A DNA stretch of 64,000 nucleotides from Tubulanus polymorphus (GCF_964204645.1 NC_134027.1:21600560-21664559); one strand, 5' to 3'. Shown: positions 1-18,555, counted from the stretch's first letter. Program-made: numbers and translations. Notes: generated from the sequence alone by a model not told the origin.

Positions 1-302
1 TCATTGGATTCTATGCTGCAGATGGTTCAAAAAGTTTCAAAAACCGCAAAACAATATCTTTAGCTCAAAAAGGAAAAGTTGCTATATCAGGATTGAATAT
101 ATTATGCTGTTCATTAGGTTTTAATATGAATATTGGATTGATTAAATCTAAACCAAATTGTTTTAATTTAAGCCATGTAGAAAATGAGTTAACAGAAGAA
201 GTTAAAGATTTATTTGAAATATATAACCCAACTGACTATGTTTATGATTTATCAACAGATGATGGAACATTCAATTCTGGGTTCCCATTAATCCAAAAAA
301 AT
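1..302 (+). mobile_element. Intein (C-terminal part) with a LAGLIDADG homing-endonuclease motif inside pPolB
   Basis: IGFYAADGS (LAGLIDADG-like) at 3-29, block F YVYDLST, terminal Asn at 300-302, then Thr-Asp-Ser of polymerase motif C at 303-311. Confidence 0.88.
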
Positions 303-757
303 ACTGACAGTTACATACTAAAAATCAAGACAAATGATATAACAAAAGACTTAAAAACATTAAAACATCATTTTGATTTTAGCAATTATCCCAAAGATCA
401 TGAACTATTTAGCAATGATAATAAAAAGATTCCTGGTAAATTTAAAGATGAATTAGGAGGTGATGAAATGATTGAATTTGTTGGGATAAGAAGTAAAATG
501 TATAGTTACAGAACAAAAGATCATGAAGCTAAAAAGTTAAAAGGAATAACAAAACATGTGGTTGATAAACATATAGAATTTCAAGATTATATAAAGTGTT
601 TATATAAATCAATTGTAATGAAACACAAAATGAATTGTTTAAGATCAGAAAATCATGAAATGTACATTAATGAAGTTGAAAAAACTAGTTTAAATCCATT
701 TGATGATAAAAGGCATATTTTAGATGATGGTATAAAAACATTACCTATGGTTATTAA
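1..757 (+). CDS. Protein-primed family B DNA polymerase (pPolB), C-terminal part, intein-containing; apparent 1-nt frameshift just before the natural stop
   Basis: Frame open from base 3. Motifs TDS (second half of YxDTDS), KKIPGKFKDE, FVGIRSKMY, KLKGI, SLNPFDDKR. The expected end TLPYGY* is seen in another frame (cc tat ggt tat taa, 744-757). Confidence 0.92.
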
Positions 758-2052
758 AATGGATCTATATCATCAAACTCGAAATCACTATTGGCTTCTT
801 CATTTTCATTTAATTGTTCAGGTTCTTCTTCCATTCCATTTTTCTCATTTAAATAAAGTTCTATCTTGTTCCACATTTCATCTCGCTCTCTTTGTTTCTT
901 TTTGTTTGTTAATTCATCAAATGGAATTATAATATCTAGGTTTAAATAATTTACAATCTTATTTAAAAAGAATTCATAATTTATTGAATCTGTTATTCTA
1001 TTTTCCAAATGATACATTAATATTTGTTTAAATATTTTTTTTATATTTTCCATATCTTCTTCTGTTAATTTAGGTTTTTCATAATAATCGTTAAATAATA
1101 AATATAAATACATTTTCTTTTGTTTTGTGTTAAATGTTGGTGGAATAATTGTTTTTATAATATCTTTTTTAGTTATTTCGCCATTTTTATTTTCTATTAT
1201 TTTCATTTTTTCAAGCCATTGCATATATTCTGGTGTATGATCTTCTATAGAAAATATTTTAAAAATTTCATCAAGATAATTTAATTTTGGATCTATAAGA
1301 AAATTTCTAGTTTTTTCTTCATCCCATAAATTCTTTTGCCATCCACAATCAACACAAAATAACACAGTACCTTCTTGCCTTAAGGTCGCATAACTACATT
1401 GTGGGCATTTTTGTTTATAATTTATTGGTAATAGATTTTCATTAAGCTCTTGGTATTTTCTTACGTTTTCTTTATGTTTTATTGTTCTATTATGTAGATT
1501 TGAATTACTTGTTGTAATAATCAATTTACAATATTTACAATAATATGTTTTTCTTGTTAATTCATTATATTGTTTTTCTAACTTTTCAACTGTTTCTTCA
1601 TTATCTGGTAATGTTTTCTCATATTTTATTTTTTCTAATAAATTATTTTTTCTTTCATTGAATTCAGTTTCAAATTTATTAGAAATTTTATCTATATGTG
1701 CTTTACGAAATTGATGATTCTCCCAATCTTCTATATTTTCAGGGCTATATTTTACTTGACAAGGCTCACAGAAATGATCTTTTATATTATCCTTATCATA
1801 GAATAAGAAAGGTCTTTTCCAAATAACTTCAGGTTCAACTTCGGCAGAATTACTATCAACATTAGCCGTTGCGCCATTAATTCTACACTTCTCTGAATGT
1901 TTTTTAACATAATTTCTTGAGAATAATTTATTACATTTTGGACAGTTTATTTTAGGGGGTTTATAATTTTCATCATGTTTTTTCATATGTCGAGCCATAT
2001 TACTTTTTCTTAGAAGTTCACCACAAATTTCGCATGCTATCTTCTCATCCAT
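754..2052 (-). CDS. Multi-Zn-finger protein with a C-terminal VLTF3 (poxvirus A2)-like late transcription factor domain
   Basis: N-terminal C2H2/matrin-like fingers (CEICG..HMKKH, CPKC, CEPC..H..H, CKYC..H..H), Zn ribbon CPQC...CVDCG, and C-terminal INYEFFLNKI..L...RERDEMWNKI resembling the VLTF3 consensus NYxYxLxK..L..QDxxWxxI. Confidence 0.65.
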   Translation of the reverse strand: MDEKIACEICGELLRKSNMARHMKKHDENYKPPKINCPKCNKLFSRNYVKKHSEKCRINGATANVDSNSAEVEPEVIWKRPFLFYDKDNIKDHFCEPCQVKYSPENIEDWENHQFRKAHIDKISNKFETEFNERKNNLLEKIKYEKTLPDNEETVEKLEKQYNELTRKTYYCKYCKLIITTSNSNLHNRTIKHKENVRKYQELNENLLPINYKQKCPQCSYATLRQEGTVLFCVDCGWQKNLWDEEKTRNFLIDPKLNYLDEIFKIFSIEDHTPEYMQWLEKMKIIENKNGEITKKDIIKTIIPPTFNTKQKKMYLYLLFNDYYEKPKLTEEDMENIKKIFKQILMYHLENRITDSINYEFFLNKIVNYLNLDIIIPFDELTNKKKQRERDEMWNKIELYLNEKNGMEEEPEQLNENEEANSDFEFDDIDPF

Positions 2053-2120
2053 TTATTAAGGAAAAATTTTATTAAAATTAATTTTTAGTGATGAGCGGTA
2101 ATTTTTTCATGTTATAAATA

Positions 2121-2873
2121 ATGGTAGAATTAAAAGAATACAGAATATTTGTTGATTCTAGAAAACTTACAAATTATAAATCTCATAATTTACTAGTACA
2201 ATTAGATAGAGAATTCAAGAATTGTGTTGATTTAAAATTAGTAAATATAAGTTTATGTAATTCTTTTTATAATATAACGGATAAAACTATTGATCATAAA
2301 TTGTTTATAGTTCAGGAAAAAAATAAAAGGTATCATTTATATCTAAAACCAGGGTTATATAATTTAGATACATTGGCACAAGAAATTAATAGAAAAGCCT
2401 GGCACAAATTAGGTAGTAATTCCGGGATTAGTATTAGATTTTTAAAAAGTGATAGTTCTGATAAAATAAGGATTAGGTTAACTCGTAGTGAAAAATATCA
2501 ATTTTTAGTTAAAAAACCTATAGCTAAACTGTTAGGAATTACACCAGATAAACTTTATTCAAATGTTGATGCTACACCAAACTTAATACCTTACACACAT
2601 TTTTATATTTATTGCAATTTAATCGATCCTACAAAAACATTCGAAGCAACTAAAGATATAACTTGTAATTCTGGTTTACTAAACATTTTACCATTGAAGA
2701 ATGTTAAAGAATTTGGAACGCAAATAAATTATAATTTAACAGAATGTGATTTTAAACCATGCATTCCTAGTTTTAATAATTTTAGATTAGAAATTAGAAA
2801 TCATAATGGATACTTAATTGATTTAAATAATTTCCCTGTAATTTATGAATTAGTTATAAGATGTAAAGAGTAA
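2121..2873 (+). CDS. Probable minor capsid protein (penton, single jelly-roll)
   Basis: 250 aa, beta-rich; NSFYNI, PGLYN..L..EIN, FYIYCNLI, LEIRN.NG..IDLN pattern typical of Polinton mCP. Confidence 0.65.
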   Translation: MVELKEYRIFVDSRKLTNYKSHNLLVQLDREFKNCVDLKLVNISLCNSFYNITDKTIDHKLFIVQEKNKRYHLYLKPGLYNLDTLAQEINRKAWHKLGSNSGISIRFLKSDSSDKIRIRLTRSEKYQFLVKKPIAKLLGITPDKLYSNVDATPNLIPYTHFYIYCNLIDPTKTFEATKDITCNSGLLNILPLKNVKEFGTQINYNLTECDFKPCIPSFNNFRLEIRNHNGYLIDLNNFPVIYELVIRCKE

Positions 2874-2890
2874 TTTTTTTCACTATATAA

Positions 2891-3232
2891 ATGAATATAA
2901 CTGTTGGACCGAGTATATGTTTTGGGTTTGATTTTAAACATGGTAAAGAAATGAGAATTAAACTAAATGATGTAATTACTGATATAAAAAGTAAATCATT
3001 TAACAATGCATCAATGATTGATAAAGAAAATTATAATATAGAAAAAGTAATTGATTTAATTAAATCACCTTTAGAATATTATGAATTAAATGAAGATGGA
3101 ATTATTGAAGATATTAAAAACATATTATCCAAAATATATGATAATCATAAAACTAGTAATGAAATAAATGTTGAATTAATCATAAATAAGTTAACTAAAT
3201 ATTTTGATGATAGTAATTTTTTTGATAAATAA
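2891..3232 (+). CDS. Hypothetical Polinton protein (113 aa)
   Basis: ORF in tight array with TAAATG start; its stop abuts the next ATG. Confidence 0.6.
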   Translation: MNITVGPSICFGFDFKHGKEMRIKLNDVITDIKSKSFNNASMIDKENYNIEKVIDLIKSPLEYYELNEDGIIEDIKNILSKIYDNHKTSNEINVELIINKLTKYFDDSNFFDK

Positions 3233-3454
3233 ATGAGTGATAATAAGTGGATAATAACTGGATTATATAATGGCGCATTACTATCAGTTGGAACTGTTGG
3301 CTATTCAATGGTATTAAAAAAAGTATTCAAAATGGGAAGTGTTAATGTTGATAGATTTGATATAAATGATATTCTAAAATTAACATTAGCAGTTACTTTA
3401 TCCAATTTAACTATTGATTATTTGGAAAAACAAAAATATATTCCTCCCATATAA
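3233..3454 (+). CDS. Small hydrophobic virion/membrane protein (73 aa)
   Basis: Two hydrophobic/amphipathic segments; TAAATG start. Confidence 0.65.
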   Translation: MSDNKWIITGLYNGALLSVGTVGYSMVLKKVFKMGSVNVDRFDINDILKLTLAVTLSNLTIDYLEKQKYIPPI

Positions 3455-3479
3455 ATGCATAATTTTTTTTGCTAAATAA

Positions 3480-3902
3480 ATGGCTTCTGCAATTATAACT
3501 ATTATAGGATCAGCAATTGTTAACGCTTTAGCATTTACTGGTGGTGGATATTTATTTAAACATATTGATAAAAATAGTTCATTAGGAGAACAAAGAAGAC
3601 ATAATTTAGCGTTAGAGAAATATAATAAAGCTGCAGAAGAATATAGAGAAAAGAGACACAACTATATGGATTACATCAATAAAGAATTATATGATCAGAA
3701 GATTTCACATAGAGATTTTCAATCAGTCGATGATGCAATGAGTTTATATAACGCGGTAACAAATAAAGAAAAATTACATCTTTACGAACCTAAATTATCA
3801 GATTATTATACCCCAAGTAAAGAACAACAGAAATATGAAATAATTTGGATTTTAGGTGGAACTGTTATTGTTATATTTGTTGCTTATAAGTTTACTAATT
3901 AG
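3480..3902 (+). CDS. Membrane protein with N-terminal Gly/Ala-rich hydrophobic helix, coiled coil and C-terminal TM
   Basis: MASAIITIIGSAIVNALAFTGGGYLF ... IIWILGGTVIVIFVAY. Confidence 0.7.
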   Translation: MASAIITIIGSAIVNALAFTGGGYLFKHIDKNSSLGEQRRHNLALEKYNKAAEEYREKRHNYMDYINKELYDQKISHRDFQSVDDAMSLYNAVTNKEKLHLYEPKLSDYYTPSKEQQKYEIIWILGGTVIVIFVAYKFTN

Positions 3903-3921
3903 TAATTTTTATTCTAAATAA

Positions 3922-4356
3922 ATGGAAGATAAAGTTGATAATATTGATATTATTCCTCATGATATAAATAAAACTAAATTAAAAACATATTTAGAAAAAC
4001 AAATATTAGAATTTGAAAGTGACTTAAAGATAAAAAAGAAAAAATATTTAAAAAGTAAAATTATATATTATTTGATTATAAGTGGTTCGGTTACAATTAG
4101 TTCTGTAATAACATTTCTAGCAATATTCAGCCCATTAACACCTTTAGCTATATCAATTGGTGTATTAGGATTAAGTTCAAGTGTTTTAACTGGTATAAGT
4201 TCAAAATTAAATATAAAAAGTAATAAAGAAAAAATTAAAACTAATATAAAAGAAATTAATAAATTAAAGAACACACTAGATTATATAATAAGTTTAAATG
4301 GTCATATAACAGTTGAAGAACAAGATAAATTATTAAAAGAATTAATAAATTATTAA
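3922..4356 (+). CDS. Two-TM hairpin protein flanked by coiled coils
   Basis: IIYYLIISGSVTISSVITFLAIF and LAISIGVLGLSSSVLTGI between Lys-rich helices. Confidence 0.7.
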   Translation: MEDKVDNIDIIPHDINKTKLKTYLEKQILEFESDLKIKKKKYLKSKIIYYLIISGSVTISSVITFLAIFSPLTPLAISIGVLGLSSSVLTGISSKLNIKSNKEKIKTNIKEINKLKNTLDYIISLNGHITVEEQDKLLKELINY

Positions 4357-4372
4357 TTTTTTAATTATATAA

Positions 4373-5674
4373 ATGGGGTTTCCAAAAGCTTTCCAATATA
4401 ATAAATCAATTAAATATAATATTCCGGCAATAGATTTTAAGAAAAATATTACATATAAAAATATAGTTTTAAATTCATTAACTAATTTAGAAATTTATGT
4501 TAATGAATCACAGTTTTTTATTTCTAAAATGGAAAATATATTTAATACATATGAAGTTACTTTTACTCGAGATGAATATCATAAATATAAAGTAAAATCT
4601 AATATGAAGTATTGGCAGAACCAATTAGATTTTGCTGTTTATTGTGCAACAACAGGATGTGGAATTAGTTGGAATGATCATTTAAATAACTTAGATAAAA
4701 ATTTGAAGTATTCTGATTTAAAATTAATTCACACAATATTTAGATTTCACACATATTTTCAAATCAGAATAATATTAAATGAATTAGAATGTCCTTTACC
4801 CGGGTCTAAATATTTTAAAGAATTAGATAATAATATTAATATATCCAAGTTTTATAAAATATGTAATGAATTTAATATAAATATTAATTCCGATTTTAGA
4901 GCGCATGGTAAATTGCAAGGTGTTGGTGAAGAGTATGAAATAAAAAGAATTGATTATATGCATAGAATTGGAGCTTATCATAATTATAAAATTGATAATA
5001 ATAATGGTTGGGTTAATTTCATTTTAGAAAATGGTGAAGGTTTTACAAAATCAGGTATACAAAGAATAAATCAATCTATTAGAATTTATTTGATATGTAT
5101 TTTAGGTGCTCAAGTTGAAACAAGATCCCCAATAATTGGAAATGATAACACTTCATTCGATGCGCAGAAACAATTCAAAGTTTTATTTGAAGATTCCATT
5201 CATAATAATAAAAATAGATCGATTCCAGAAAACATTATAAGATATCAAAATTATTTAGATAAATCTCATGTAAGACTAAATTATTGTATAGGCCCTAATC
5301 TATTAATTATTTCTAATGATTTAGTATTAAAGATGGGAAATATAATTGGTTATAATAATCTAATTAAAACTGCAACGATAAATAATTCATTTGGATTAAA
5401 TGATATAAATAAAAAGATTATTACTGCTCCAAAATTAATGGAAGGTGAAAAAAATAAAAAACATATTCAATCAACTGAAACTAAAACTAAGAATATTAAA
5501 TTGGATAATGATTCCAAAATAAAAGATTACAATACATCAGAAAATATAAAAACTGATAAAATTCAACATGATATAATTAAACTAAATGATGATAATAAAT
5601 CACATGAAAATACTAAATTAGCTATAACTTGTATAGGAATTGTAATCGGAGGAATATTATATTTTAAATTTTAA
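4373..5674 (+). CDS. Hypothetical Polinton protein (433 aa) with C-terminal TM anchor
   Basis: Long intact ORF with a motif-like segment YWQNQLDFAVYCATTGCGIS; ends LAITCIGIVIGGILYF. Confidence 0.75.
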   Translation: MGFPKAFQYNKSIKYNIPAIDFKKNITYKNIVLNSLTNLEIYVNESQFFISKMENIFNTYEVTFTRDEYHKYKVKSNMKYWQNQLDFAVYCATTGCGISWNDHLNNLDKNLKYSDLKLIHTIFRFHTYFQIRIILNELECPLPGSKYFKELDNNINISKFYKICNEFNININSDFRAHGKLQGVGEEYEIKRIDYMHRIGAYHNYKIDNNNGWVNFILENGEGFTKSGIQRINQSIRIYLICILGAQVETRSPIIGNDNTSFDAQKQFKVLFEDSIHNNKNRSIPENIIRYQNYLDKSHVRLNYCIGPNLLIISNDLVLKMGNIIGYNNLIKTATINNSFGLNDINKKIITAPKLMEGEKNKKHIQSTETKTKNIKLDNDSKIKDYNTSENIKTDKIQHDIIKLNDDNKSHENTKLAITCIGIVIGGILYFKF

Positions 5675-5690
5675 TTTTTTTATTATGTAA

Positions 5691-7388
5691 ATGGATGTAG
5701 AAGGTGGAGAAGATATTCCATTGGATCCTTTAGATGAACCTGGTATAAGTGATGAACAACAACCTGATTTTGATGAAACAAGTTTCAGTAATGATAATAA
5801 AACGGCATATAATACTAATTTAGGTGAAGATGATGATTATGATGATGATTATGATGATGATCCCGAATTACGTGAAAAATTAAATAAATATTTAAAAGCT
5901 CCTGAAATTGGTAGAATTTCAACTAGAAGAGAAAGAAAAGAATTTATGGAACTATTAGAAAAACAACAAGAAAAATATCCTGATGAATATTTGGAATTAT
6001 TTAAAACGAAATCTAGAGTAACAGATACAATTGTTAACGAATTATTACCAATAGTTGTATTACATGAAATTGATACTGAAGGTGTTGTAGAACAAATTTT
6101 TAAAGATGACCCATATTTCACAAATAATTTAGAATTTAAAAATGATGCATGGTATTATAATCTTGAATTAAATAGGAATACTGTATCAATTCAATTATCT
6201 AGAATGGGTCAAGAAAATATTTATGAACCTGAAATGCGAGCAAGATCTACAATTGAAGGTTCAAAAGGTGGTAGAGAATTTCTTAGAATTATATGGAATG
6301 CAATCTATAGAATAAATGAAGAAGAACCAATTCCTAAAATTGATATAAACAAATATTCACCATTTAAAAATCCATTTAAAAATCCAAATCCTACTGATTT
6401 TGATCCAGAAATGGAAGAGAATAGAAATCGATTAGATAGATTAAGATCTTCAACACCCGAAACATCGAGAAGAGACACTCAACCAATTGATAATTATTCA
6501 AGTCAATTACAATTAGAAAAACAAATTGATAGATTAAGAGATTCAGAAGAACTGATGAATAGTGCTGGAATAAATCGACTGCAACATTTACTAGAAAAAG
6601 GATTTCTTAATTTAACTGATGAAGAATTAGAAGCATTTCCTGAACAAATACGTAGAGAAATTAAAGGTATACAAGTATCAGCTGATGAAATTGCTAATAT
6701 TAAGATGAGATTTTCTAAAATAACCATGTTAGAAAAAGAATTAATTAATGCAGAAGAAGAATTAAAACAATTAGAATTAAATAGAGATTTTAATGTAGTT
6801 TATGAAGCTGATTTTGAAAACGGAAAGTTAGCTTTAGTAAAAGAAATAGATGATTTAGAATATAACATAAAATTACAAAAAGAAGAAAGAGATATATTAT
6901 TAAAATCATATGATCTTAATCATATTAAAAAATTAAAAGTTATTTTAAAAGATTTGTTGATAAAACCAGATTCTGAAATATCATTAAAAGACAGAATAAA
7001 GTTATTATTTAAATTAGAAGGAATAACAATTCTTTCAATTCTAACATCTGTAACTATGTTATTTACAACAATTGGTTTAGCTATATCAAATGCTTTGAAA
7101 TCTACTCCTACTCCCACTCCAAATAAACCAGATAAACCTCCAGGCAATAATTCTATACAAGATAAAGTTAAAGATGGTTTAAAGAAATTAGCAAAATATT
7201 TATGGGAACTATCTAAAAAATCTGCTGCAGCACTACCAGGAGTTATTGCTTCAATTGTTGGTTTTATATTGAAATTTGCAGGAAACATTATTAACTTTGC
7301 TGCTGAACATATTATTTTATTTTTAATTACAGTTGTAAGTGCTATTATTTTTGGGTTAGTAAATATGATATCAAAAAATATCAAGTAA
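5691..7388 (+). CDS. Acidic N-terminus, long coiled coil and C-terminal multi-TM protein (565 aa)
   Basis: DE-rich start, heptad region, hydrophobic GITILSILTSVTMLFTTIGLAI, PT linker, then two further hydrophobic helices. Confidence 0.75.
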   Translation: MDVEGGEDIPLDPLDEPGISDEQQPDFDETSFSNDNKTAYNTNLGEDDDYDDDYDDDPELREKLNKYLKAPEIGRISTRRERKEFMELLEKQQEKYPDEYLELFKTKSRVTDTIVNELLPIVVLHEIDTEGVVEQIFKDDPYFTNNLEFKNDAWYYNLELNRNTVSIQLSRMGQENIYEPEMRARSTIEGSKGGREFLRIIWNAIYRINEEEPIPKIDINKYSPFKNPFKNPNPTDFDPEMEENRNRLDRLRSSTPETSRRDTQPIDNYSSQLQLEKQIDRLRDSEELMNSAGINRLQHLLEKGFLNLTDEELEAFPEQIRREIKGIQVSADEIANIKMRFSKITMLEKELINAEEELKQLELNRDFNVVYEADFENGKLALVKEIDDLEYNIKLQKEERDILLKSYDLNHIKKLKVILKDLLIKPDSEISLKDRIKLLFKLEGITILSILTSVTMLFTTIGLAISNALKSTPTPTPNKPDKPPGNNSIQDKVKDGLKKLAKYLWELSKKSAAALPGVIASIVGFILKFAGNIINFAAEHIILFLITVVSAIIFGLVNMISKNIK

Positions 7389-7424
7389 ACCATGATATCA
7401 AAAAATATCAAGTAAACCATGATA
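7365..7424 (+). repeat. 27-bp tandem duplication spanning a stop codon
   Basis: ATGATATCAAAAAATATCAAGTAAACC twice, plus ATGATA. Confidence 0.9.
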
Positions 7425-7456
7425 AAAAATAAAGAATTAATTTTTTTGTTAAATAA

Positions 7457-8704
7457 ATGAGTGGGAGTTATATAAGTCCTTCTAAGATTTCTAGAATATC
7501 TAATGCTATTAAAGCAGAAAGATCACATCATATAATTACTCATAACCCTTCAAATATTAATCCCGATGAAACTTTATATGTGAGGATTCCTCGATTAACA
7601 CAAAATACTTTTTATGTTCCAAACAGTATTTATTTATCCGCTGATATAAAAGTAATCGGTAATAATAATAATTATGTTGTTGATAATGTTGGAAGATATT
7701 TGATTAAAAAGTTAACAATAAAGATTGGTCCAGAAACAGTTTTCTCATTAGATGATTATAATTTATTTATGCATTATAAAGATTTATGGTTAACAAAAGA
7801 AAATAGAAATAATATGATATTTCAGGGTATTCAATCAGAAAACCAAAATAAATTAAGATCAGAAGCTAATAGCGCAATATTAACAAATGATGCAGATAAA
7901 TTGATAAAAAGTATATATGGAAGCAAATATAAAATTCCATTAGACTTTGAATTGATAAATAATAATGCACCTTTATATAAATACGCAATTCAAGAAGATA
8001 TTATATTTGAGATAACATTTGCTCCTGTAAATGAAATTGTATTATCTAGTGTTGTTAAAGATATGAGTTATAAATTATCGAATATATGTTTAGAATATGA
8101 TACAGTAACTGATGAAAATATTTCAAGTATAATTCAAACTCAATACAATCAAGGGTTTTCATTATTATATGATTATATTGATAAATTTAAAACTGTAACT
8201 ATTAATGCAAATGATGAAATAATAAATGAGAATATTAACTTCCCAAGAAGATCTATTAAAGGTATATTAATATTTTTTACTATTGGAACGTATACTAATG
8301 GTGCAATAAATGTTGACAATTATTATAATCCTGAAATAACAAAAGTAGAAATAACTATTGAAGGTATAGCAAATAAAATATTTTGTCAAGGAATGAGAAT
8401 GATTGATCAATGGGTAGAAATTAAAAAACATTTTATGAATGAAAAAGTAAAATCATTTGAAAATTGTAACATTAATCAAATTGATTATTATACTGGTAAT
8501 AAATATGCATTATGGTTAGATTTTAGAACAACAGAAGATAATTCATTACATGGTTCTGGAAAAAAACTACAGAACACTAAAGATGGAATACAATTATTCA
8601 TGAAAAAGAATAAAGGAATCAAAAATTTTAAAATGCACATTTATATTATATCTGACGCGCAATTAAATATTGTAAATTCACAATTAGATAGTATTCAATA
8701 TTAG
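7457..8704 (+). CDS. Major capsid protein (double jelly-roll)
   Basis: 415 aa, beta-strand rich; HNPSNINPDETLYVRIP, IKKLTIKIG, LSNICLEYD, ALWLDFR; next to integrase and ATPase as in Polintons. Confidence 0.8.
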   Translation: MSGSYISPSKISRISNAIKAERSHHIITHNPSNINPDETLYVRIPRLTQNTFYVPNSIYLSADIKVIGNNNNYVVDNVGRYLIKKLTIKIGPETVFSLDDYNLFMHYKDLWLTKENRNNMIFQGIQSENQNKLRSEANSAILTNDADKLIKSIYGSKYKIPLDFELINNNAPLYKYAIQEDIIFEITFAPVNEIVLSSVVKDMSYKLSNICLEYDTVTDENISSIIQTQYNQGFSLLYDYIDKFKTVTINANDEIINENINFPRRSIKGILIFFTIGTYTNGAINVDNYYNPEITKVEITIEGIANKIFCQGMRMIDQWVEIKKHFMNEKVKSFENCNINQIDYYTGNKYALWLDFRTTEDNSLHGSGKKLQNTKDGIQLFMKKNKGIKNFKMHIYIISDAQLNIVNSQLDSIQY

Positions 8705-8734
8705 AAATATAAAGTTAAAATTAAGGATATATAA

Positions 8735-9862
8735 ATGAGAGGTAAAAAAACTCCTAATACTAAAGAACAATATTTAAGAAATTTATATTACAACCCTGAG
8801 AGTTCGGTTGCTTATTCTTCTATTAAAAATATATGGCGTAAAGTAAAACAAGATAAATTAGATAAGATAATCTCACAAAATTTAGTTAAATATAAAGATA
8901 AAAATGAATTTATGTTAGAACAACCAACGTATACAACACATAAAAAAATTGTTAGAAAATATAAAACTCGTAAAACTATGGTAAGTTATGTAGATCAACA
9001 GTGGCAAGGAGATTTAATTGATATGAAAAATGTTAAGAAAGATAATGATGATTATTGGTGGTTATTGAATATAATTGATATTTTTAGTCGTTATGTATGG
9101 AGCTTCCCACTTTATAGAAAAGATGCTGTACAAACATCAAATGTTTTAAGAAAATTTCTTTCGGATGATAAACTAAAACCAGAAAAAATACAATTTGATG
9201 ATGGAAAAGAATTTGATAATTCACTTGTTCATGAACTCTTAGATAATCATAATATTAAATATTTTTCAACAAAATCAGATAAAAAAGCAGCAGTTGTTGA
9301 ACGATTTAATAGAACATTAAGAACAAGAATGTGGAAATATTTTACAGCAAATAATACTTTTAAATGGATTGATGTTTTACCAAAATTGACAGAAGGATAT
9401 AATAATTCTTATCATTCTTCTATTGGAATGAAACCTATTGATGCTAGAAAATCTGAAAATGCTGAAATTGTTTGGAATAATTTATATGGAGCATTTCTTA
9501 TAGATGATTTTGGTGAACCTAAATTTAAAGTTGGTCAAAATGTTAGAATTTCTAAGTATAAAAAGATATTTGACAAAGGATACGATCGAAATTTTACTAG
9601 GGAAATATATAAAATAAAAAAGGTAATAACAACAAAACCATATGTCTATAAATTAGAAGATTTAGATGGTGAAGAAGTTGATGGCTACTTTTACGAAGAA
9701 GAATTAAGTTTAACTACTGAAAATCTAGAACAAGAATATAAAATTGAAAAAGTATTAAAAACAAAAACTATTAAAAGAAAAAAATATTCTTTAGTAAAAT
9801 GGGTTGGATGGCCAGATAAATTTAATGAATGGATATTATCAAGTAAAATTAAAAATATATAA
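8735..9862 (+). CDS. Retroviral-like (rve) integrase with C-terminal chromodomain
   Basis: DDE triad intact (WQGDLIDM, QFDDGKEF, VERFNRTL); YNNSYHSSIGMKP; chromodomain YKIEKVL...LVKWVGWPDKFNEWI. Confidence 0.95.
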   Translation: MRGKKTPNTKEQYLRNLYYNPESSVAYSSIKNIWRKVKQDKLDKIISQNLVKYKDKNEFMLEQPTYTTHKKIVRKYKTRKTMVSYVDQQWQGDLIDMKNVKKDNDDYWWLLNIIDIFSRYVWSFPLYRKDAVQTSNVLRKFLSDDKLKPEKIQFDDGKEFDNSLVHELLDNHNIKYFSTKSDKKAAVVERFNRTLRTRMWKYFTANNTFKWIDVLPKLTEGYNNSYHSSIGMKPIDARKSENAEIVWNNLYGAFLIDDFGEPKFKVGQNVRISKYKKIFDKGYDRNFTREIYKIKKVITTKPYVYKLEDLDGEEVDGYFYEEELSLTTENLEQEYKIEKVLKTKTIKRKKYSLVKWVGWPDKFNEWILSSKIKNI

Positions 9863-10471
9863 ATGAATAAGGAATTATTCATATTTGAGCCTCATAATAT
9901 GTTAATTTCTGGTGTAACAAATTGTGGAAAAACTTATTTTATATTACATTTATTAGAAACTGTTTATGAAAACTATTTTGATAATATAGTATTATTTTGT
10001 CCAACATATGAATTTAATCAAACTTATGATAAAAATATTACTAGGAATAATAAATTTATTATATTAGATCCTAAAACAGTAAAAGAAAATTTAGATAATT
10101 GTATAAAAATAGCAATTGATATTCATAAAGGATCAAATACATTATTTATCATAGATGATTGTGCTAATCTACATGATTCAAAAGTTAGAGAAAGTGAGTT
10201 ATGTTATTTAGCTTTTTCTGGCAGACATTTTGGGATAACAACTTGGGTTTTAAATCAAAAATATAATTCAATTGTTAAAGACTTTAGAGAAAACATTAGA
10301 TTTCTAGTTTTATTCTACAATAAAGATAGAAAATCGATGAAAAATGCACTTGAGGAAAATGATATTATTCCACATGATTTACATAATGAATATATGGATA
10401 AGTTGAAAAATATTAAAAGATCAAAATTACTATTTAGATTACAACACCCATTTAAATATGAATTTATTTAA
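9863..10471 (+). CDS. A32/FtsK-like genome packaging ATPase
   Basis: Walker A GVTNCGKT, Walker B LFIIDD, GRH..I....Q motif, R in FRENI. Confidence 0.92.
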   Translation: MNKELFIFEPHNMLISGVTNCGKTYFILHLLETVYENYFDNIVLFCPTYEFNQTYDKNITRNNKFIILDPKTVKENLDNCIKIAIDIHKGSNTLFIIDDCANLHDSKVRESELCYLAFSGRHFGITTWVLNQKYNSIVKDFRENIRFLVLFYNKDRKSMKNALEENDIIPHDLHNEYMDKLKNIKRSKLLFRLQHPFKYEFI

Positions 10472-10735
10472 ATTCAACTAGTTTGTTAATCTAGTTGAAT
10501 TCTAGTTGTTAGTAGTTGAAACAAAAATCAACTAGATTTAACAATATTTCAACTAGCTTGTTAATCTAGTTTAATTCTAGTTGAATTCTAGTTGTTAGTA
10601 GTTGAAACAAAAATCAACTAGAATGTAACTAGAAATAAACAAAAACAACAATATTTCAACTAGCTTGTTAATCTAGTTGAATTCTAGTTACATTCTAGTT
10701 GAATTCTAGTTGCAACAACACAACTAATTTGTTTG
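10472..10735. repeat. Intergenic array of short inverted/direct repeats (AACTAG/CTAGTT)
   Basis: Repeated CAACTAG(C/T)TTGTTAATCTAGTT, GAATTCTAGTT and GTAGTTGAAACAAAAATCAACTAG units. Confidence 0.85.
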
Positions 10736-10743
10736 TTATATAA

Positions 10744-11334
10744 ATGGGAGGTGAAAAGAAAATAAAATCTAAAAATGGTGATGTTCCAATTGAAAAAACT
10801 TTAGATGATTTAGGAATAACAGAAACAAAATTAACTCCAGATGATGGTGCTTTAAATAATGTTACAACAAATAATAATTATGAATATTATCTTTATTGTA
10901 AACATCAATTAGAAATATTAATAGCATCTGGAAAATGTAAAAATTTTGTCAGTAAAAATTTAACTTATAATGAATTAGATACAATGAAATCAGATGAAAT
11001 TATTAGATTATTTAAGATTTATGAATCCGCGAGAACAGCTAGAATTAATGACGCGATATCAGAAAATGTAGTAAAAGGTTATAGTAAATTATGTAATTAT
11101 ATACTACCAATTGAAGATGAAAATAGATTATATTCCGATTTAAAAAATGATTATTTAGTTATGACTGAATTAAATAAATGGATTGGATATTTATCATTTC
11201 AATTAGGTGGATTTATGACATTATTATCAACTGGAGTTATAACATTTTCAAATATTGAAAGTAAAAATATTTCTATAATAAATGAGCGAGGTGAAAGAAG
11301 TGAAGAAAAAACCGAGAACTCAGAAACAAATTGA
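10744..11334 (+). CDS. Hypothetical Polinton protein with C-terminal hydrophobic segment
   Basis: 196-aa ORF with TAAATG start; IGYLSFQLGGFMTLLSTGVITF. Confidence 0.7.
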   Translation: MGGEKKIKSKNGDVPIEKTLDDLGITETKLTPDDGALNNVTTNNNYEYYLYCKHQLEILIASGKCKNFVSKNLTYNELDTMKSDEIIRLFKIYESARTARINDAISENVVKGYSKLCNYILPIEDENRLYSDLKNDYLVMTELNKWIGYLSFQLGGFMTLLSTGVITFSNIESKNISIINERGERSEEKTENSETN

Positions 11335-11635
11335 ATGGTCTCGGCAATTAGGAATTAAATCACAAGAATATAAAAAAGCTGTAAAAGAAAAAATAAGTAA
11401 TAAAAATGTTAATAAAAATGGTGAAAATATTGTTATTTCTACTCCTTCTGATAGTAGAATATTTGACAAATATTTATATTTTACAGTTGGATTTGTAATT
11501 GTATTCATTTTGATTGGGTGTAATTGGTATAAGAAATCAAATAAAATTCATGATATTAGTAATTCTGAAACAACTGCTATTAAAAATGAAAATACTTTTG
11601 AAATTCCAAAATTAACAATAAAAAAAATGGATTAA
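11282..11635 (+). CDS. Small basic single-TM protein
   Basis: Basic N-terminus; YLYFTVGFVIVFILIGC TM; TAAATG start; overlaps the upstream ORF. Confidence 0.65.
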   Translation: MSEVKEVKKKPRTQKQIEWSRQLGIKSQEYKKAVKEKISNKNVNKNGENIVISTPSDSRIFDKYLYFTVGFVIVFILIGCNWYKKSNKIHDISNSETTAIKNENTFEIPKLTIKKMD

Positions 11636-11823
11636 TATTTTAGAAAAAAAGCAAAAAAAATAATTTTTTTTAATTAATTGAATATTAATTGAATATCTCA
11701 CTACTTTTGTCTATCACTGTGTGGGTGCTGTTTATGGCACCATCTATGCGGAGCAATTAAATTGTCCAGATAAGTCATTTCGGATTCTAGATATTCATTA
11801 TTTTTATTAATTTTTTTAAAAAT

Positions 11824-12150
11824 TTAATCAACAATTTCTAAATCATGATGACCGTCTTCATTTTTCCCATGATATATTATTTTAAATCCTACTAAATCTT
11901 TCAATTCCTCCATACTCAATGAAACCCATTTATCGGGTAAAAACACTTTAAATTCTCGTGATGTACTAACATTACAGTAGCTTAAATTCGCTGATACTTT
12001 CTCTCCATATTTAGTTTTTATCTTTTCTAATTTCAATATTTTATGTTCAATTTCTTTTGTAACATCAACTAACTTTTTTATTTCAAATTGTTTTTTTGCT
12101 GGTTTTATTCTGTTATTTATTGTTGCTAAGAATGCTTTTCTATCTCCCAT
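11824..12150 (-). CDS. Small protein, possibly OB-fold ssDNA-binding
   Basis: 108 aa; KIKTKYG..V.A.L...KVFLP beta-rich pattern; terminal position; TAAATG start. Confidence 0.5.
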   Translation of the reverse strand: MGDRKAFLATINNRIKPAKKQFEIKKLVDVTKEIEHKILKLEKIKTKYGEKVSANLSYCNVSTSREFKVFLPDKWVSLSMEELKDLVGFKIIYHGKNEDGHHDLEIVD

Positions 12151-12236
12151 TTATTAGGAAAAAAAATTACTTGTGGTGATGAGTGGTGTCTCGCCCTCTC
12201 GCCCTCTGATCTGAAAGCCTACTTATCTAATTACTG

Positions 12237-12860
12237 TTTCCAATAAAATCCCGTAGATTTCCCAGAAAGGCGGTTTCGTTATGGGCGATGGCGTTTATTT
12301 CAGTGATTGATTTTTTGGGGCACTTCATTCAATTCTTACCCGAACGTCGCCTTGGATTCATTCGCCTTTGATTCCCCGACAGTTGGCCATATATTACAAT
12401 GCGCACTCAGAAATATAAATATTTTGTTCGGTTCAAACTTTCGACATGGCGTTATAAAGTTTCCGGGCGTATTCTAGTTTTGCATCTTACCGTCATTTTC
12501 CCGATTTGCTTTCTATTAGTTATAATCGATGTAATTCTTATTCTAGCGACATCTTACCGTCGGGCTACTCGACGTTCAGAGCTCGGTGTAACTGATGAAT
12601 TGTCTCGAAGGGAAATGAGGGTTTTAAGGATGGTTTTATCAGTAGTTATGGTATTCATTATTTGCGAAGGGTTCCTGTTTTAGTGACCGTTTAATGAGCC
12701 TAGGATACATTCGTCGACTTAACACGATGAGGCTGATAGCGCTAGGATTTTCTATCATCGATTCTTCGGTAAACTTTATCGTGTATTGCGTTACGAATGT
12801 AAAACTCAGAAAAGAAGCATTTCATATCACAAGCTACGCGTCTGGAATCAGTGCGCTTCA
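12237..12860 (+). pseudogene. Rhodopsin-class (peptide receptor-like) GPCR, TM4-TM7, disrupted
   Basis: FPIKSRR (ICL2-like), TM5 VIFPICFLLVIIDVILI, RREMRVLRMVLSVVMVFIICE (TM6); after a frameshift, IDSSVNFIVYCVTNVKLRKE (TM7/helix 8); in-frame TGA near 12370. Confidence 0.8.
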
Positions 12861-15800
12861 ATGAATTATTCAATGATATTGTTTTCGAGCTGTAGAAGAG
12901 GCTAAAGAAGATGTTGTTCGGATCACTAAATCTATAACCGTCATATTTCATGATCCGTGAGCCTTTTCTTTATCATACAAGGGAGCTATCTCCCTGATAA
13001 CACAAACTATGGGGTACCCGCACCGCTACTGTGGCAATCGAGGATTCTACACGTATGGGAGGCGAGGATCCACCAGGTTCGCTAGTTGATAGTAGGTCTT
13101 CCGCATACGATTTACTTTACATTTAAATTAAAACTGAATGATCGTTTCTCTTAAATGAATCAATTATTAATGGAAATTATACCGAATATCTGGGAAAAAA
13201 GATTAATCTAATGTAGATTTGGTAGGTCCTGTGATAATATATGGATTCGGGAGTGATAGCTGGTGCTGTGGGTTCCTCATTAGATTGAAAGTACGAGAAA
13301 CAACCACATTGCATTACTTCTGTAAATTTCTTAATTTCTTGGACCGATCAGACGTCATCAGGGTCTAGTTAGATATCTGCATTAAAGCTGAAGGTTGTTC
13401 ACAGTAAACCCTTCGCATAAATTGGAACTGGCAGATTCAGCGAATTCCTAGTGAACGGATCCAAATGGGAAATCTGAAGCATCAGAAATCAGAACAAAAT
13501 ATCTATAGCTTTTTTCTCCACGTGCCTAACGACAGCTGAGCTGAAGCAACTGAATGCATGAATATCATTGATGCAAAATTGCATCTTATCGCGTACCATT
13601 ATTCAATAAGAATAACCTATACGTTACACCTCTAAGCTCTAGGTGATACTATTACGATGTGTTAGTGTTCGAGAAAATCGTTACATCATAACCAATTCGA
13701 ATGCCCCAAAAACCAAGCTGGTCGAAGAGTCATTCATATTTTTCGTCATGTAGGCACGGATCCGGGGGATGCCCACAATTTAAAACGTAAACTTAGATCC
13801 TATCTCGCCTCCGCCAACAACGGTATCCTCATTCTCCTGAACTTTCTAGCTTACTCTCATGAAATTTACGTACTTTATCAACTCTCATTTCCTTTCCCTT
13901 TGTTTCTTCATTAACCTTTCACTTTTACTGGGCGCTTGCAACAGCGGCCTCTAGGCTTCGCTTGGCCCATACTGAAAGCTTCTTTTCTCTCATTTTATAA
14001 GTGTGCTTCAAAAATTGTAAATTCAATTCAATTCTTTGTTTTTCTCTCAACCTTTGTGCAAAGCCTGTAATGCTTTCCGTGAAATAAATTTGAATTTGAA
14101 CGCGAACCCCCTCCAAAAAGTCAAGTTGAATTGAAATTATACAGGAAAATCAAAAATATCAAATTGTTACATAAAAACGGTAAAAAATTCTATATTTTCC
14201 TCTGTATTTCGAAAAAATGAGTTCATGTTCTCCGATGAGCTTTTTTCGGGTTGCCCTTTTAATTATATGATATGCCCTATTTGCACCCCTCCCTGAATCA
14301 GACTCTAGATCCATCCCCGTTACGAAGTTGTGACCATATTATAATGCCTCATACAGTCCTAAATACGATCGCATCAAAAACTATTTAACCAAGAACAGTT
14401 AAGCCTAAGTATATTTTTTAGCCTAAAGGATGTAAGAATTGGAAAGATACTGCTTAATAGTGGAGGGTCTCCATTGTCTTCTTTCTTGGATGATCCCAGA
14501 ATCCTTTACCCAAAAACAAGACCACAACAAAAATGTACACAATATGAGCTGCTGCCCTTTATTAACAAGAGAAGATCACTAGGCTTAAGGGGACTGCCCA
14601 AGCCCCGTACAAAAATACAATATCCTTCTTCAGCAACATCTAAATTAGAAATCATTTTTTAAAATCGAAAATCTTACATTAACACACATTAAAATTTCAT
14701 TTCTAATCCCAGATTTTTCTTACAGGTGCTGATTTCCCAGACCAGCCAGGTTTAATCTCATCCTTGTTTGCCCGGCCAAGGAACATCTGCATATTTTAAA
14801 ACAAATTCATGAACTAACCTAGCTTCTCTTCTGTCAGGAGAATTACAGCCTAGAATTTCGTACATGCACTACATTTTTGATCGATTTAAGATATTCGAAA
14901 ATGTACTAAATTCTCTCAGACTTTTACATTTTGTACTGTTGATAGGAAATGAACGTTGGAAGATTCTTCTCCAGTGAACAGTGTGCTTTATTCTTCTCTC
15001 CAGTTTCGTCTTCTGGTGTCTCTGATCTCTCTCTTAGATTTCAGGGACCCTCCTTATATTAGCCACTTGCCAGACTGCCAAATCAGCGAGCGTATTTGTC
15101 TAATTCTTGTTATGGCAATAGCAACCCGTTTTTTTTCTAATTCTTGTTATGGCAACCCAAAACTAAGGTTGTATTGAGTTCAAATAAATATAATTCTAAT
15201 ACGGGTTCAACCATAATTCAACGACGATAGGGTTCAACCACCGTTTGAAATAATGTAGTTGCTGTTACAATTTTTCTTTAATTGAATCTTATTGATTAAC
15301 TTCCCAATATACATATTATTATATATTTCCTAATATCCCCCTGGACTTAATATTTTCGCCCCGAGATATCGAGATGAGACAACCAGAACTCAGAGAACAA
15401 CCAGCGTCGATTGCACAATAATACAATGAAATTTGAAAGTTAAACGAGCCTAACCTGAAAGGTGAAGTTTGACTGGAATTCTATAGAGTGAGGTTATGGG
15501 TTGGAGATCAAATGAGATATAAGTTTCAAGAAGAAATACCATGAGGGAAAAGAAGTGAGTCACCACCCTTATACCAACTGCAGGGCTTCTAGTGGTCCTA
15601 TTTTCCTATTTTTTCCTATTTTTTAGTGCTTGTCCTATTTTGTCCTATTTTTATATGAAAAAGTCCTATTTGTCCTATTTTCTCTCATTTTCCAGCTCGT
15701 CGACGACTTTTTATCGACAAAAATGTTCTTTATATCTTTTCATATGATGTGAAACACCATTTTGAGTGTTTGGTAGAACCTGCAGCATTCATGTTCGGTA

Positions 15801-16128
15801 AGTTCTGGCTATACAACTTCTTTTCTAATCTTTATATCCTAACATGCCCAATGATTTTGTTCCAAATGTCACATGTTGCAGTGCAACTGGGCTTTGGCTA
15901 TATGAGGGTTACAAACCAGAGGTGGTCGAGAAGTCAATCTCTTTTCATCCAAACATTTCTTGATTATAATGCTAATTCTTTTGGGTCCGCCTCAGGTATA
16001 CATTGCCAAGTATCACCACAGGGATGCTCTGTTGAGATCTAGCTGTGTGCAGTGACAATACTGAAAGCAATTATGGATTGCTTTGATTGTTGCCACTGCT
16101 TTAAATATTGTAACCTTAGACAGGAACA

Positions 16129-18555
16129 ATGCCGAACCGGACCAAGTTCTCGGATTCATGGTTGATTGAAGATGATAAACAAGGACACAAAATAAATGAA
16201 TGGTGCCAACCAGTGAAAGGCGATATTTATAAGGCATATTGCTTTATATGTGAAAAAAAACTATCTATTGATAACCAGGGTTTAGGCCAACTAATACAAC
16301 ATGCTTCAAAAATGATGCATCAAAATAATAGCAAGATAAAACTGAACAAAAATCAGAAAAAACTTTTCCCGGTTGATAACACTTTAGAATGTGAAAGCTT
16401 AAGTGATAAGGTACTCAAGGCAGAAATAATATGGGCCATGTATGTGGCTGTAAATGACTACAGCTTCTTGTCATGCAACGATGTGTGTGAAACTTTCAGA
16501 TGCATCTTCAAAGATCCAGCTGTTATAAATGAAATGACGTTGTCAAATGGGAAAGTGTCTTATACGATAAGCGATGGAATAAGAATACAGTTGACAAATG
16601 AGTTGATGAATGATATTCAGGATTGTACTACTGGATATTGTGTTTCATACGATGAAACACCAAACAAGCAGAAACTGAACCAGTTGGATATATATGTGGG
16701 GTATTTTTCACCTATATCCAAGAAAATTGAAACTCGATTCATTAAGACGATAATGATGGGTCACAAAACAGCTGAAATGGTACTCGGGGAGCTTCTCGGT
16801 GCCATGAATGACTTCAACATTGACTTATCGAAAATCATAGCTTTGTGTAGTGATGGCCCAAATGTAAATATATCAACTTGGCGTAAGATGTCAGCAAAAG
16901 TAATAGAAAAGGGCGGAAAGATGATAGATGTTGGATCATGCAGCCTCCATATGGTTCATAATGCGTTTAGAAAAGGCTTAGCATCTTTTGGCGCTGACAT
17001 AGAAGAGTTTGCAGGAGATATACACACATTCTTCAAGTATGCCACAAGGCGACAAGATTATGCAGTGTTCCAGCGAAAGGTTGGTGTAAAGGAAAATACA
17101 TTCCTCAAACATGTTGATTCGCGTTGGTTGACACTAATTCCAGCACTCTGTAGAATCAGCGAACAGTTTCCAGCTTTGAAGGCATATTTTGGTGATCTCA
17201 AAAAGAATACTAAGAATGATGATTCTCAATCTGCATGTTGTAAACGAATACAGAAGGTACTACTCGACGTAACTGTTCCTGTGAAGATACAATTTATCCT
17301 AGATATCGGTAATATGTTTCAACGGTATGAAACTCTTTTCCAAAAGCGTGAACCGATGATTCACATTTTGTATACAGAAATGTGCGAGTTAATGCATAAA
17401 ATATTGTTACGCTTTATTAAGCCTGATTCTCTCCCAGAAAAGACTGGAGCAAAGTTGCTGGCTGCTGATATTGAAAAATGTGAGCAGCTCTCTGATGCTT
17501 GTTTAGTGGTTTGTAAGCTCACCAAGGATAAACTTGCTGTTCTAGATTCTTCGAAACAAAAACTGATAATAAAAGGCATTCGGGCATTCTATGTTAAAAT
17601 AGCATCATATCTCCAACAGAAACTTCCCCTTGGAAATAATTTCCTACGAAACGTGAGGTGTTTACAACCGGAACGTCGGTCTGTTCATCGATTTGGGTTG
17701 TCAATTAAGGCTCTGGCGGTTGATCTGCCGACTATCATACCTGCATCACAAGTCTCCACAGTTGTAGACGAATGGAAGATATATAGCAATGACTTGCTTG
17801 AAGATGATTGGTATAAAGACTCAGATGGAATAAGGTTACGAATTGATAAAGCATGGGAGAAAATATTTGTTCGCCAGACTGCTTCTGGTGATAGCAAATA
17901 TACTGTCCTGCCCAAATTGGTAATGGCATGCCTTACTATATCTCATGGTAGTGCTGAGGTTGAAAGAGGGTTCTCTGCCAATTCACGCACCATTACTGGT
18001 TCAAGGGCAAGTCTTGAAGTTGAAGCAATTACAGGTTTGAGAATGATCAAGGACAAATTAAAGACCACTGGACAGAAGCCATGTGAAATGACATTATCAC
18101 CTGAGCTACTATCATGCTGTAGACGGTCTTATAAAAACTATACAGAGAGACTTAAGAAAGAGAAAGAGATGGCTGAAAAGGCAAATAAGAAAGCTCTAGA
18201 AGATAGAAAAAGAGCCGAGGAGGCAAAGCAGGTAGAGACAGAATATGAAAATACAAGAAAAATCCTTGAAACTAGAAAATTAGAGTTGTTGGAAGTTGAT
18301 CATTCATCCATGGAATCAATGACGACAAATAAACAACTACTCATGGAAGGCAATGAAAAATTGGCCAAAGCTATCAAGGAAAAGGACCTTACACAAATCA
18401 AAGTTGCACAGTGCATGATTGAGGTGGCACACAATAAATTTGATAAACTTGAGAAGGAAATGAAAGACAATCGACAGAGAATAGGTGAAATTGAGAAAAG
18501 GAAGAGAAAATTAAATGATGACCATGCTGAAACCATGAAAAAGCTAAAATGTTAA
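16129..18555 (+). CDS. hAT-like transposase, intact 808 aa
   Basis: BED-like finger (CFIC..H....H), VSYDET, SDGPNVN, CSLH, SRWL, AEVERGFS, C-terminal coiled coil. Confidence 0.9.
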   Translation: MPNRTKFSDSWLIEDDKQGHKINEWCQPVKGDIYKAYCFICEKKLSIDNQGLGQLIQHASKMMHQNNSKIKLNKNQKKLFPVDNTLECESLSDKVLKAEIIWAMYVAVNDYSFLSCNDVCETFRCIFKDPAVINEMTLSNGKVSYTISDGIRIQLTNELMNDIQDCTTGYCVSYDETPNKQKLNQLDIYVGYFSPISKKIETRFIKTIMMGHKTAEMVLGELLGAMNDFNIDLSKIIALCSDGPNVNISTWRKMSAKVIEKGGKMIDVGSCSLHMVHNAFRKGLASFGADIEEFAGDIHTFFKYATRRQDYAVFQRKVGVKENTFLKHVDSRWLTLIPALCRISEQFPALKAYFGDLKKNTKNDDSQSACCKRIQKVLLDVTVPVKIQFILDIGNMFQRYETLFQKREPMIHILYTEMCELMHKILLRFIKPDSLPEKTGAKLLAADIEKCEQLSDACLVVCKLTKDKLAVLDSSKQKLIIKGIRAFYVKIASYLQQKLPLGNNFLRNVRCLQPERRSVHRFGLSIKALAVDLPTIIPASQVSTVVDEWKIYSNDLLEDDWYKDSDGIRLRIDKAWEKIFVRQTASGDSKYTVLPKLVMACLTISHGSAEVERGFSANSRTITGSRASLEVEAITGLRMIKDKLKTTGQKPCEMTLSPELLSCCRRSYKNYTERLKKEKEMAEKANKKALEDRKRAEEAKQVETEYENTRKILETRKLELLEVDHSSMESMTTNKQLLMEGNEKLAKAIKEKDLTQIKVAQCMIEVAHNKFDKLEKEMKDNRQRIGEIEKRKRKLNDDHAETMKKLKC

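Follow-up and report, generated by a model that had tools for sequence, protein, structure and literature searches.

A poxvirus late-type start signal on the visible genes of a Tubulanus polymorphus Polinton, consistent with transcription by a helper virus

The first 12,235 nucleotides (nt) of a 64,000-nt stretch of Tubulanus polymorphus DNA (GCF_964204645.1 NC_134027.1:21600560-21664559; the whole stretch is called the window below) form the right-hand 12.2 kb of a group-2-like Polinton, the left end of which lies beyond the window. Each of the 14 ATG-started genes in this part of the element carries one bipartite start signal, a TAA/T-rich core followed at a fixed distance by TAAAT, which matches the late promoters of poxviruses. 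The signal is strong and real, while its mechanism is inferred; we favour, at a probability of roughly 0.55, the reading that a co-infecting pox-type virus transcribes the element with its own RNA polymerase and that the element lives as a virophage-like parasite. An original prediction for this DNA had reached a helper virus from three signals taken together, namely TAAATG starts, a VLTF3-like late factor and an intein in the DNA polymerase. As it stands now, support for a helper comes almost wholly from the promoter grammar, which is bipartite, fixed in spacing, clade-wide, common to every gene class and anti-Kozak.

Of the 14 ATG-started open reading frames (ORFs) between 754 and 12150, 13 open with TAAATG, whereas 29 of the element's 468 other ATGs have that context (binomial P about 3e-15). 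This confirms the near-universal TAAATG starts that had been predicted. Among spurious ORFs of 30 amino acids (aa) or more the motif opens 1 of 19, and over the whole window the hexamer occurs 88 times where 91 are expected, so that its position is special and not its abundance. An upstream TAA, usually followed by a T-run, lies at -19 in ten starts and at -20 in three, and accompanies 5 of the 28 internal TAAATG sites; T-runs of 5 or more are present at 10 of the 14 starts. The fourteenth gene (2121..2873) has its TAA at -22 and its TAAAT (as TAAATA) at -6, with the 16-nt spacing kept. Since both parts are shifted by 3 nt, the spacing follows TAAAT and not the ATG, and the TAA/T-rich core is found 16-17 nt before TAAAT in 14/14 genes. 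In vaccinia, late promoters are described as having a T-containing core 5-7 bp before TAAAT(G/A), inside which transcription starts (review PMC5294985). The element has both components, TAAAT(G/A) overlapping the start codon in 13/14 genes and a T-rich core upstream.

The signal extends to the relatives of the element, which were collected by a metagenome scan with a capsid alignment and represented by the best 80 of 238 confirmed stretches; searches of IMG/VR with the capsid, PolB and the capsid alignment gave no matches. A quick capsid tree of 67 rows, with 14 loci of fewer than 300 aligned residues excluded, places the window in a 15-row clade (SH-aLRT 98). TAAATG stands at 50 of 58 core-gene starts in this clade (38 of 45 without the window), at 0 of 22 in the sister clade and at 1 of 131 in a 46-row clade, near-copies being among the rows counted. 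Two or three changes suffice on the tree, and TAAATG is thus one lineage trait and not many independent cases. The long-branch row L055 has TAAATG at 3/3 starts; L055, L056, L057 and L061 are deeper-branching Polinton fragments that also use it, which suggests that the trait may predate the clade of the window or else have arisen twice. The clade spans 20-44% GC, and AT-rich outsiders (26-30% GC) are without the motif. Divergent starts carry TAAATG in 17 of 20 cases, and a stop codon abuts the start in only 3 of 82. At base -3, T is found in 88% of 42 clade starts, whereas in the other clades 85% of 20 starts and 81% of 112 have a purine there, and clade starts therefore break the purine-at--3 rule of their relatives. 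Among 60 starts in the 14 clade relatives, 30 show a core with A at -15 and TT at -10/-9 of TAAAT, compared with 4 of 82 internal sites; T stands at -9 in 88% and at -7 in 63% of these starts, a pattern that fits the vaccinia arrangement (PMC5294985). A control locus that appears to be of poxvirus type, L248, starts 7 of 17 ORFs with the TAAAT signal, and the sister clade shows TATA within 20 nt of the ATG at 11 and 9 of 20 starts (two nearest bins).

The element is a block of 24% GC at 1-12235 in a host of about 38% GC, and holds the following features.

3..302, plus strand: C-terminal part of an intein in pPolB, truncated where the window begins, with a second LAGLIDADG-type block and a splicing motif that ends in Lys-Asn, followed by Thr.
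303..750, plus strand: C-terminal part of pPolB, 40-52% identical to the PolB C-termini of seven related loci; frame broken near its end.
754..2052, minus strand: VLTF3 gene, 432 aa, with N-terminal zinc fingers, a C-terminal zinc ribbon and a VLTF3 domain; TAAATG start.
2121..2873, plus strand: putative minor capsid protein, 250 aa; the sole start without TAAATG, with TAAAT 3 nt further upstream and core spacing kept.
2891..3232, plus strand: 113-aa ORF, no function assigned; homolog in locus L003 only.
3233..3454, plus strand: conserved Polinton ORF, 73 aa; homologs in related loci.
3480..3902, plus strand: conserved Polinton ORF, 140 aa; homologs in related loci.
3922..4356, plus strand: SLATT-like two-helix membrane protein, 144 aa (Pfam SLATT_fungal E 0.004, below cut-off).
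4373..5674, plus strand: conserved Polinton ORF, 433 aa; homologs in related loci.
5691..7388, plus strand: conserved Polinton ORF, 565 aa; homologs in related loci.
7438..7459, plus strand: capsid gene promoter, given as an example, with the TAA/T-run core 16 nt before the ATG-overlapping TAAAT; layout common to all 14 genes.
7457..8704, plus strand: probable major capsid protein, 415 aa, with a weak Pfam match (Capsid_N, E 0.011); 927 homologs, in Polinton gene neighbourhoods.
8735..9862, plus strand: RVE integrase with chromodomain (Pfam rve E 3e-10, Chromo E 8e-4); DDE motifs present.
9863..10471, plus strand: A32-like packaging ATPase (Pfam Pox_A32 E 6e-13); Walker motifs.
10744..11334, plus strand: conserved Polinton ORF, 196 aa; homologs in related loci.
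11282..11635, plus strand: 117-aa ORF.
11824..12150, minus strand: 108-aa ORF; TAAATG start, homolog in L003.
12151..12235, no strand: likely right terminal region, reading AGT... from outside inward; GC about 24% inside against 32-51% outside; the partner repeat lies beyond the window.

With a pPolB, an RVE integrase and an A32 ATPase, this is a group-2-like Polinton. The Pfam model DNA_pol_B_2 was matched by two of the seven loci with related PolB C-termini, and the capsid, which in such Polintons would be a double jelly-roll protein accompanied by a single jelly-roll minor capsid protein, was assigned from gene context and homologs, PDB sequences giving no match. The 250-aa ORF is presumably a penton protein, to judge from a resemblance in motifs. 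Pfam gave no match to an RNA polymerase family among the 15 visible ORFs, in keeping with the original prediction, and none to a cysteine protease family; no VLTF2 or TBP/TFIIB-like gene was visible among the same ORFs. The lack of a protease match fits group-2 Polintons as described in 10.64898/2026.06.19.733378. The element had also been called nearly intact; this copy is not fully so, since its pPolB frame breaks at about 740-750, near the C-terminal end.

Several further observations concern the element and its surroundings. Broken frames of a rhodopsin-type G protein-coupled receptor (12399-12683 to about 12860; 7tm_1 E 5e-4) adjoin its right end, and insertion may have occurred into or beside that gene. 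Transposon ORFs lie in the flank too, and from these and the receptor frame we infer an animal host. Repeated and inverted sequence fills 10472-10743, between the ATPase and the next gene, and recurs at the same place in L003 (9173-9340), a possible origin or hairpin; where the 565-aa ORF ends (about 7364-7420) there is a tandem repeat of about 27 nt, shorter in some aligned contigs. The element family has many variants among the contigs of one study, with 10,755 contigs aligned in run X1 (X1-X4 are sets of contigs from that study, and the alignment did not reach the right end of the element). Among relatives in the TAAATG clade a deoxynucleoside kinase (E 2e-31) occurs, as do ORFs with weak likeness to HNH or zinc-finger proteins (L003 10343-10981; L001 5568-6080; L008 3289-4020; L026 2278-2895), terminal inverted repeats (TIRs), which together with a 6-bp target duplication mark group-2 Polintons, were found in the relatives L023 and L034, and the related Polinton L024 has a helicase-type protein (9970-13596) instead of pPolB. 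Elsewhere the window holds a TIR-bounded DNA transposon (57596-61869), an 811-aa transposase-like frame (16120-18555) and a duplicated segment (24700-31600 and 47000-52000, about 20.8 kb apart).

The VLTF3-like factor of the original prediction is borne out. The C-terminal 232 aa of the ORF at 754-2052 (minus strand) score 26.6 bits against Pox_VLTF3 (PF04947; cut-off 25, E 6e-6), a match not shown with the whole 432-aa protein as query. The ESM Atlas score to VLTF3 clusters is 0.96, and the predicted fold of the domain (pLDDT 75) matches VLTF3 proteins, with poxvirus VLTF3s at BFVD ranks 1, 3 and 4. Sequence and model together identify a VLTF3 protein with a zinc ribbon and a helical domain. 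A word search of the region gave no match, nor did a Foldseek search of the model against the PDB at E 0.001 or better. Among 1.8 billion representatives the domain has four matches, the sole non-Polinton-type one being a 226-aa pox-type VLTF3. A first tree joined the window protein to the pox rows at 99/99; this was rejected as proof of origin, as a tree rebuilt with 24 giant-virus rows resolves only giant-virus monophyly. The pox affinity of VLTF3 is accordingly favoured by sequence scores and not shown by phylogeny.

As to its distribution, L003, in the TAAATG clade, carries the start of the same gene. Two further co-occurrences of VLTF3 with a close capsid are deduced only from contigs of equal size, and the remaining clade loci are fragments too short to score. 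Neither VLTF3 nor the TAAATG motif was seen in the TIR-bounded L023 and L034. In the sister clade, L046 (6543-7049) and L065 (5082-5576) have another VLTF3-like gene, which is shorter, scores below the Pfam cut-off and has neither zinc ribbon nor TAAATG; a TATA-like motif lies 5-20 nt before many of their starts, and gene and motif are perhaps an independent factor-promoter pair. A VLTF3 match in L024 (E 0.007) turned out to be a SLATT-like frame. VLTF3 has already been reported in some Polintons (PMC11131425), and the nuclear mriyaviruses keep it without an RNA polymerase (PMC11253617); VLTF3 alone therefore implies no helper.

The polymerase had been described as bearing an intein typical of nucleocytoplasmic large DNA viruses. 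This stands for the intein, the tail of which is 38-43% identical over about 100 aa to giant-virus PolB inteins, but not for the polymerase itself, a Polinton pPolB. Only the intein's tail lies inside the window; an N-terminal splicing block and a complete homing endonuclease would fall outside it. Positions 3-302 end in the intein C-terminal motif (Lys-Asn, then Thr-Asp-Ser of the extein), where uninterrupted relatives read YxDTD. The insertion is a PolB intein at YGD/TDS, with a C-terminal splicing motif, a terminal Asn and Thr as first extein residue. LAGLIDADG_3 matches the tail weakly (E 0.07) and an Atlas search gave LAGLIDADG leads only, all below 0.9. The tail, which is short, matched none of the intein models of Pfam and NCBIfam, and word search and PDB sequences gave no match; a fold predicted for the PolB piece from its sequence alone reached a pLDDT of 31 and could not be used. 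A pattern scan of IMG/VR returned at least 119 stretches, 107 of them in frame, and the best of these have a distinctive C-terminal motif in common with the window intein. A profile scan found 33 intein loci; the best 15 show 38-43% identity, and every one of them belongs to a giant-virus bin and sits at YGD/TDS, with a profile that was built from giant-virus rows and leans toward giant viruses. Among prokaryote genomes, 0 of 89 candidates were confirmed. The intein tree did not resolve the window's place, and kinship with giant viruses rests on identity and the C-terminal motif. Endonuclease insertions in Polinton pPolB have been ascribed to inteins (PMC11071308). Three short loci round intein-bearing viral polymerases, L133, L136 and L151, have TAAATG at 3/4, 3/7 and 2/3 ORFs, the first with an upstream T-run, and are non-pox candidates for the grammar in very small samples.

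With no polymerase in view and one pox-late-type promoter on every gene, the element resembles Sputnik and mavirus, which use the late promoter of their helper (10.1101/2022.07.28.501842). In transcription by a pox-type helper, synthesis would start inside TAAAT and slip to add a 5' poly(A) leader, as reported for TAAAT-type initiators (PMC6211774), and such a leader would account for the T at -3. A single promoter class, that of the VLTF3 gene included, would make expression wait for the helper's post-replicative machinery; the element's own VLTF3 may be an accessory or competing late factor, and the intein may date from a previous co-infection, by a different giant virus. Entomopoxvirus occlusion bodies have been found to contain capsid relatives of group-2 Polintons (PMC11296320). 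A wider version, which we put forward tentatively and hold to be clearly less probable than the helper reading itself, is that a widespread animal Polinton lineage consists of endogenous "poxvirus virophages", silent in invertebrate genomes, with every gene wired to poxvirus post-replicative transcription and a pox-type late factor of their own, and that aquatic pox-type viruses yet to be discovered switch them on and may in turn be restricted by them.

A number of points weigh against a pox-type helper. The case is built on promoter sequence, and no helper virus or transcript was observed. A true virophage would need no VLTF3 of its own, and VLTF3 without RNA polymerase is the state of the nuclear mriyaviruses (PMC11253617). 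The element has an observed/expected CpG ratio of 0.50, compared with 0.74 for the host flank, 1.13 for a pox locus and 0.88 for a giant-virus locus, and its value fits long nuclear residence equally well. In codon-shuffle tests, AATAAA was not depleted in the window (47 against 42.4), nor clearly in two control clades, and T-run depletion was not specific to TTTTTNT; tests of AATAAA, TTTTTNT, splice donors and CpG gave no nuclear/cytoplasmic discrimination. The alignment behind the VLTF3 model used for the BFVD ranking included the pox-type protein. The three-group VLTF3 tree is uninformative (path from the window protein to a giant-virus row 6.15, to a pox row 7.09), its pox rows differ in composition and long branches meet. 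TAAATG has one or two origins on the tree, and its co-occurrence with VLTF3 is thus not independent evidence. A pox RNA polymerase subunit was not found in 18 ORFs of related loci or by PDB searches. Finally, the 15 giant-virus loci of the intein start TAAATG at 21 of 186 ORFs, with the mimivirus-type AAAATTGA preceding 18, and the intein is absent from 7/7 related Polintons, including L008, the sole TAAATG-clade relative covering the site. Since intein kin seldom use TAAATG and L008 is without an intein, the intein is taken as the trace of an old, separate contact, with a giant virus that is probably not the source of the promoter.

The start signal, then, matches the poxvirus late type and not the intein-donor viruses, and the idea that three signals point to one helper falls. 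A VLTF3-like gene occurs without TAAATG in the sister loci L046 and L065, and TAAATG occurs without the intein in L008. Helper transcription keeps the backing of the promoter grammar, to which VLTF3 and the intein add little, and the analogy with mavirus and CroV fits in its logic though not in its signal, which is pox-type and not that of CroV.

The alternative that survives best, though we regard it as unlikely, is an autonomous nuclear virus that uses its VLTF3 to bring host RNA polymerase II to the T-run/TAAAT promoters, the pox likeness reflecting a shared VLTF3-type recognition system. The mriyaviruses offer a precedent, being thought nuclear (PMC11253617). Both Polinton clades with VLTF3-like genes show an AT-rich near-start motif (TAAATG, and TATA in the sister clade), and the VLTF3-less clade shows little, L023 and L034 having shown no VLTF3. 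An extra CTCATCAC stands upstream of the promoters of both minus-strand genes, those of VLTF3 and the 108-aa ORF (about 2085-2097 and 12176-12186), and is a possible early or host-driven element. The upstream TAATTT, which we take to resemble a polymerase II initiator, counts on the same side. However, the VLTF3 gene is itself under the same promoter class, T at -3 would be a disadvantage were the leader templated, the gene with the displaced ATG keeps the core-TAAAT spacing, the VLTF2 and TBP/TFIIB-like partners are not visible among the element's ORFs, and AATAAA occurs about every 210 nt in coding regions.

Rather improbable is pox-type transcription without an outside helper, with a polymerase that comes, in the manner of yeast linear plasmids, from the element's left part or from a sibling, or with a grammar that is the inherited relic of a past helper. 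Yeast virus-like elements do encode their own polymerase and have a TAAAN initiator and 5' poly(A) leaders (PMC6211774), Polintons gave rise to cytoplasmic linear plasmids (PMC11071308), the left part of the element lies beyond the window and this copy's pPolB is broken. Against a polymerase of its own, no such gene was found in the 15 clade fragments (1.7-11.5 kb), and the longest contig with a close capsid relative is 16.9 kb, which leaves little room. Against a relic, the grammar persists among elements whose capsids share only 50-76% identity, and this implies ongoing selection. It is very improbable that TAAATG is no promoter at all and instead a by-product of AT-richness (the element being 24% GC), stop-start coupling (two junctions are exact fusions), the upstream gene's polyadenylation signal (AATAAA or TATAAA overlaps 12/14 starts) or translation context: AT bias, coupling and a polyadenylation signal are rejected, given the AT-rich outsiders without the motif, a 44%-GC insider with it, the divergent starts that carry it, the few abutting stops and a second element at a fixed distance from TAAAT.

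Among known systems, the element is closest to the group 2 Maverick-Polintons (Polintoviricetes, "adintoviruses"), with which it shares pPolB, RVE integrase, A32 ATPase, a capsid-like protein, a SLATT-like gene, integration in animal genomes and the lack of a cysteine protease in view; some of these have VLTF3 (PMC11131425) and pPolB insertions ascribed to inteins (PMC11071308). It differs from related Polintons in its clade-wide bipartite T-run/TAAAT signal and in its giant-virus-type PolB intein at the YxD/TDS site. The Polinton-like viruses associated with entomopoxviruses have group-2 capsid relatives and are proposed poxvirus parasites; they were seen physically in occlusion bodies, whereas here the evidence is promoter sequence, and they have tyrosine recombinases or no detected integration gene, in contrast to the RVE integration of this element (PMC11296320). 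The searched text of that paper holds no promoter or VLTF3 analysis.

The pairs mavirus/CroV, Sputnik/mimivirus and Gezel-14T/PgV share with the element the absence of an RNA polymerase and one promoter class over all genes. However, these use TCTA or AAAATTGA promoters, whereas this element has a pox-type promoter, its own VLTF3, a Polinton capsid and an animal host, and its dependence on a helper is proposed. It does not fall within the virophages (Virophaviricetes), as its capsid homologs lie in Polinton neighbourhoods and no protease was matched among the 15 visible ORFs. The mavirus integrase is of the RVE type. Mavirus integrates too (PMC8502044). Vaccinia late and intermediate promoters likewise have TAAAT overlapping the ATG and a T-rich core a few bases upstream (PMC5294985), and yeast pGKL virus-like elements a TAAAN initiator (PMC6211774), but these genomes encode their own polymerase; poxviruses also carry the signal on a subset of genes, as in L248, and this element on 14/14. 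Mriyaviruses combine VLTF3 with the lack of an RNA polymerase, and differ in having VLTF2, no DNA polymerase and NCLDV-type capsids.

In the literature searched, mostly outside subscription journals and supplements, we found no description of a TAAAT promoter grammar in Polintons, nor of a giant-virus-type intein at the Polinton YxD/TDS site, although supplements beyond that text may annotate VLTF3 or inteins. The grammar is not described in the accessible text of PMC8502044, PMC12220804, PMC11464507, 10.64898/2026.10.13.758929 or 10.1101/2024.03.23.586382, the last of which reports egovirus-to-Polinton gene transfer. This promoter bears on the transcription of Polintons, and on whether they live autonomously as viruses or parasitise larger ones. 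A pox-type promoter that is fixed in one clade and missing from its relatives allows a sharp test through 5' poly(A) leaders and infection-dependent expression. Were host polymerase II responsible instead, VLTF3 would work with it on a pox-type promoter, which would bear on the role of this conserved factor. If a helper is involved, pox-type viruses are predicted in hosts where none are known, and if the wider poxvirus-virophage reading is true, animals would have in these elements an inherited defence against viruses, comparable to mavirus in protists.

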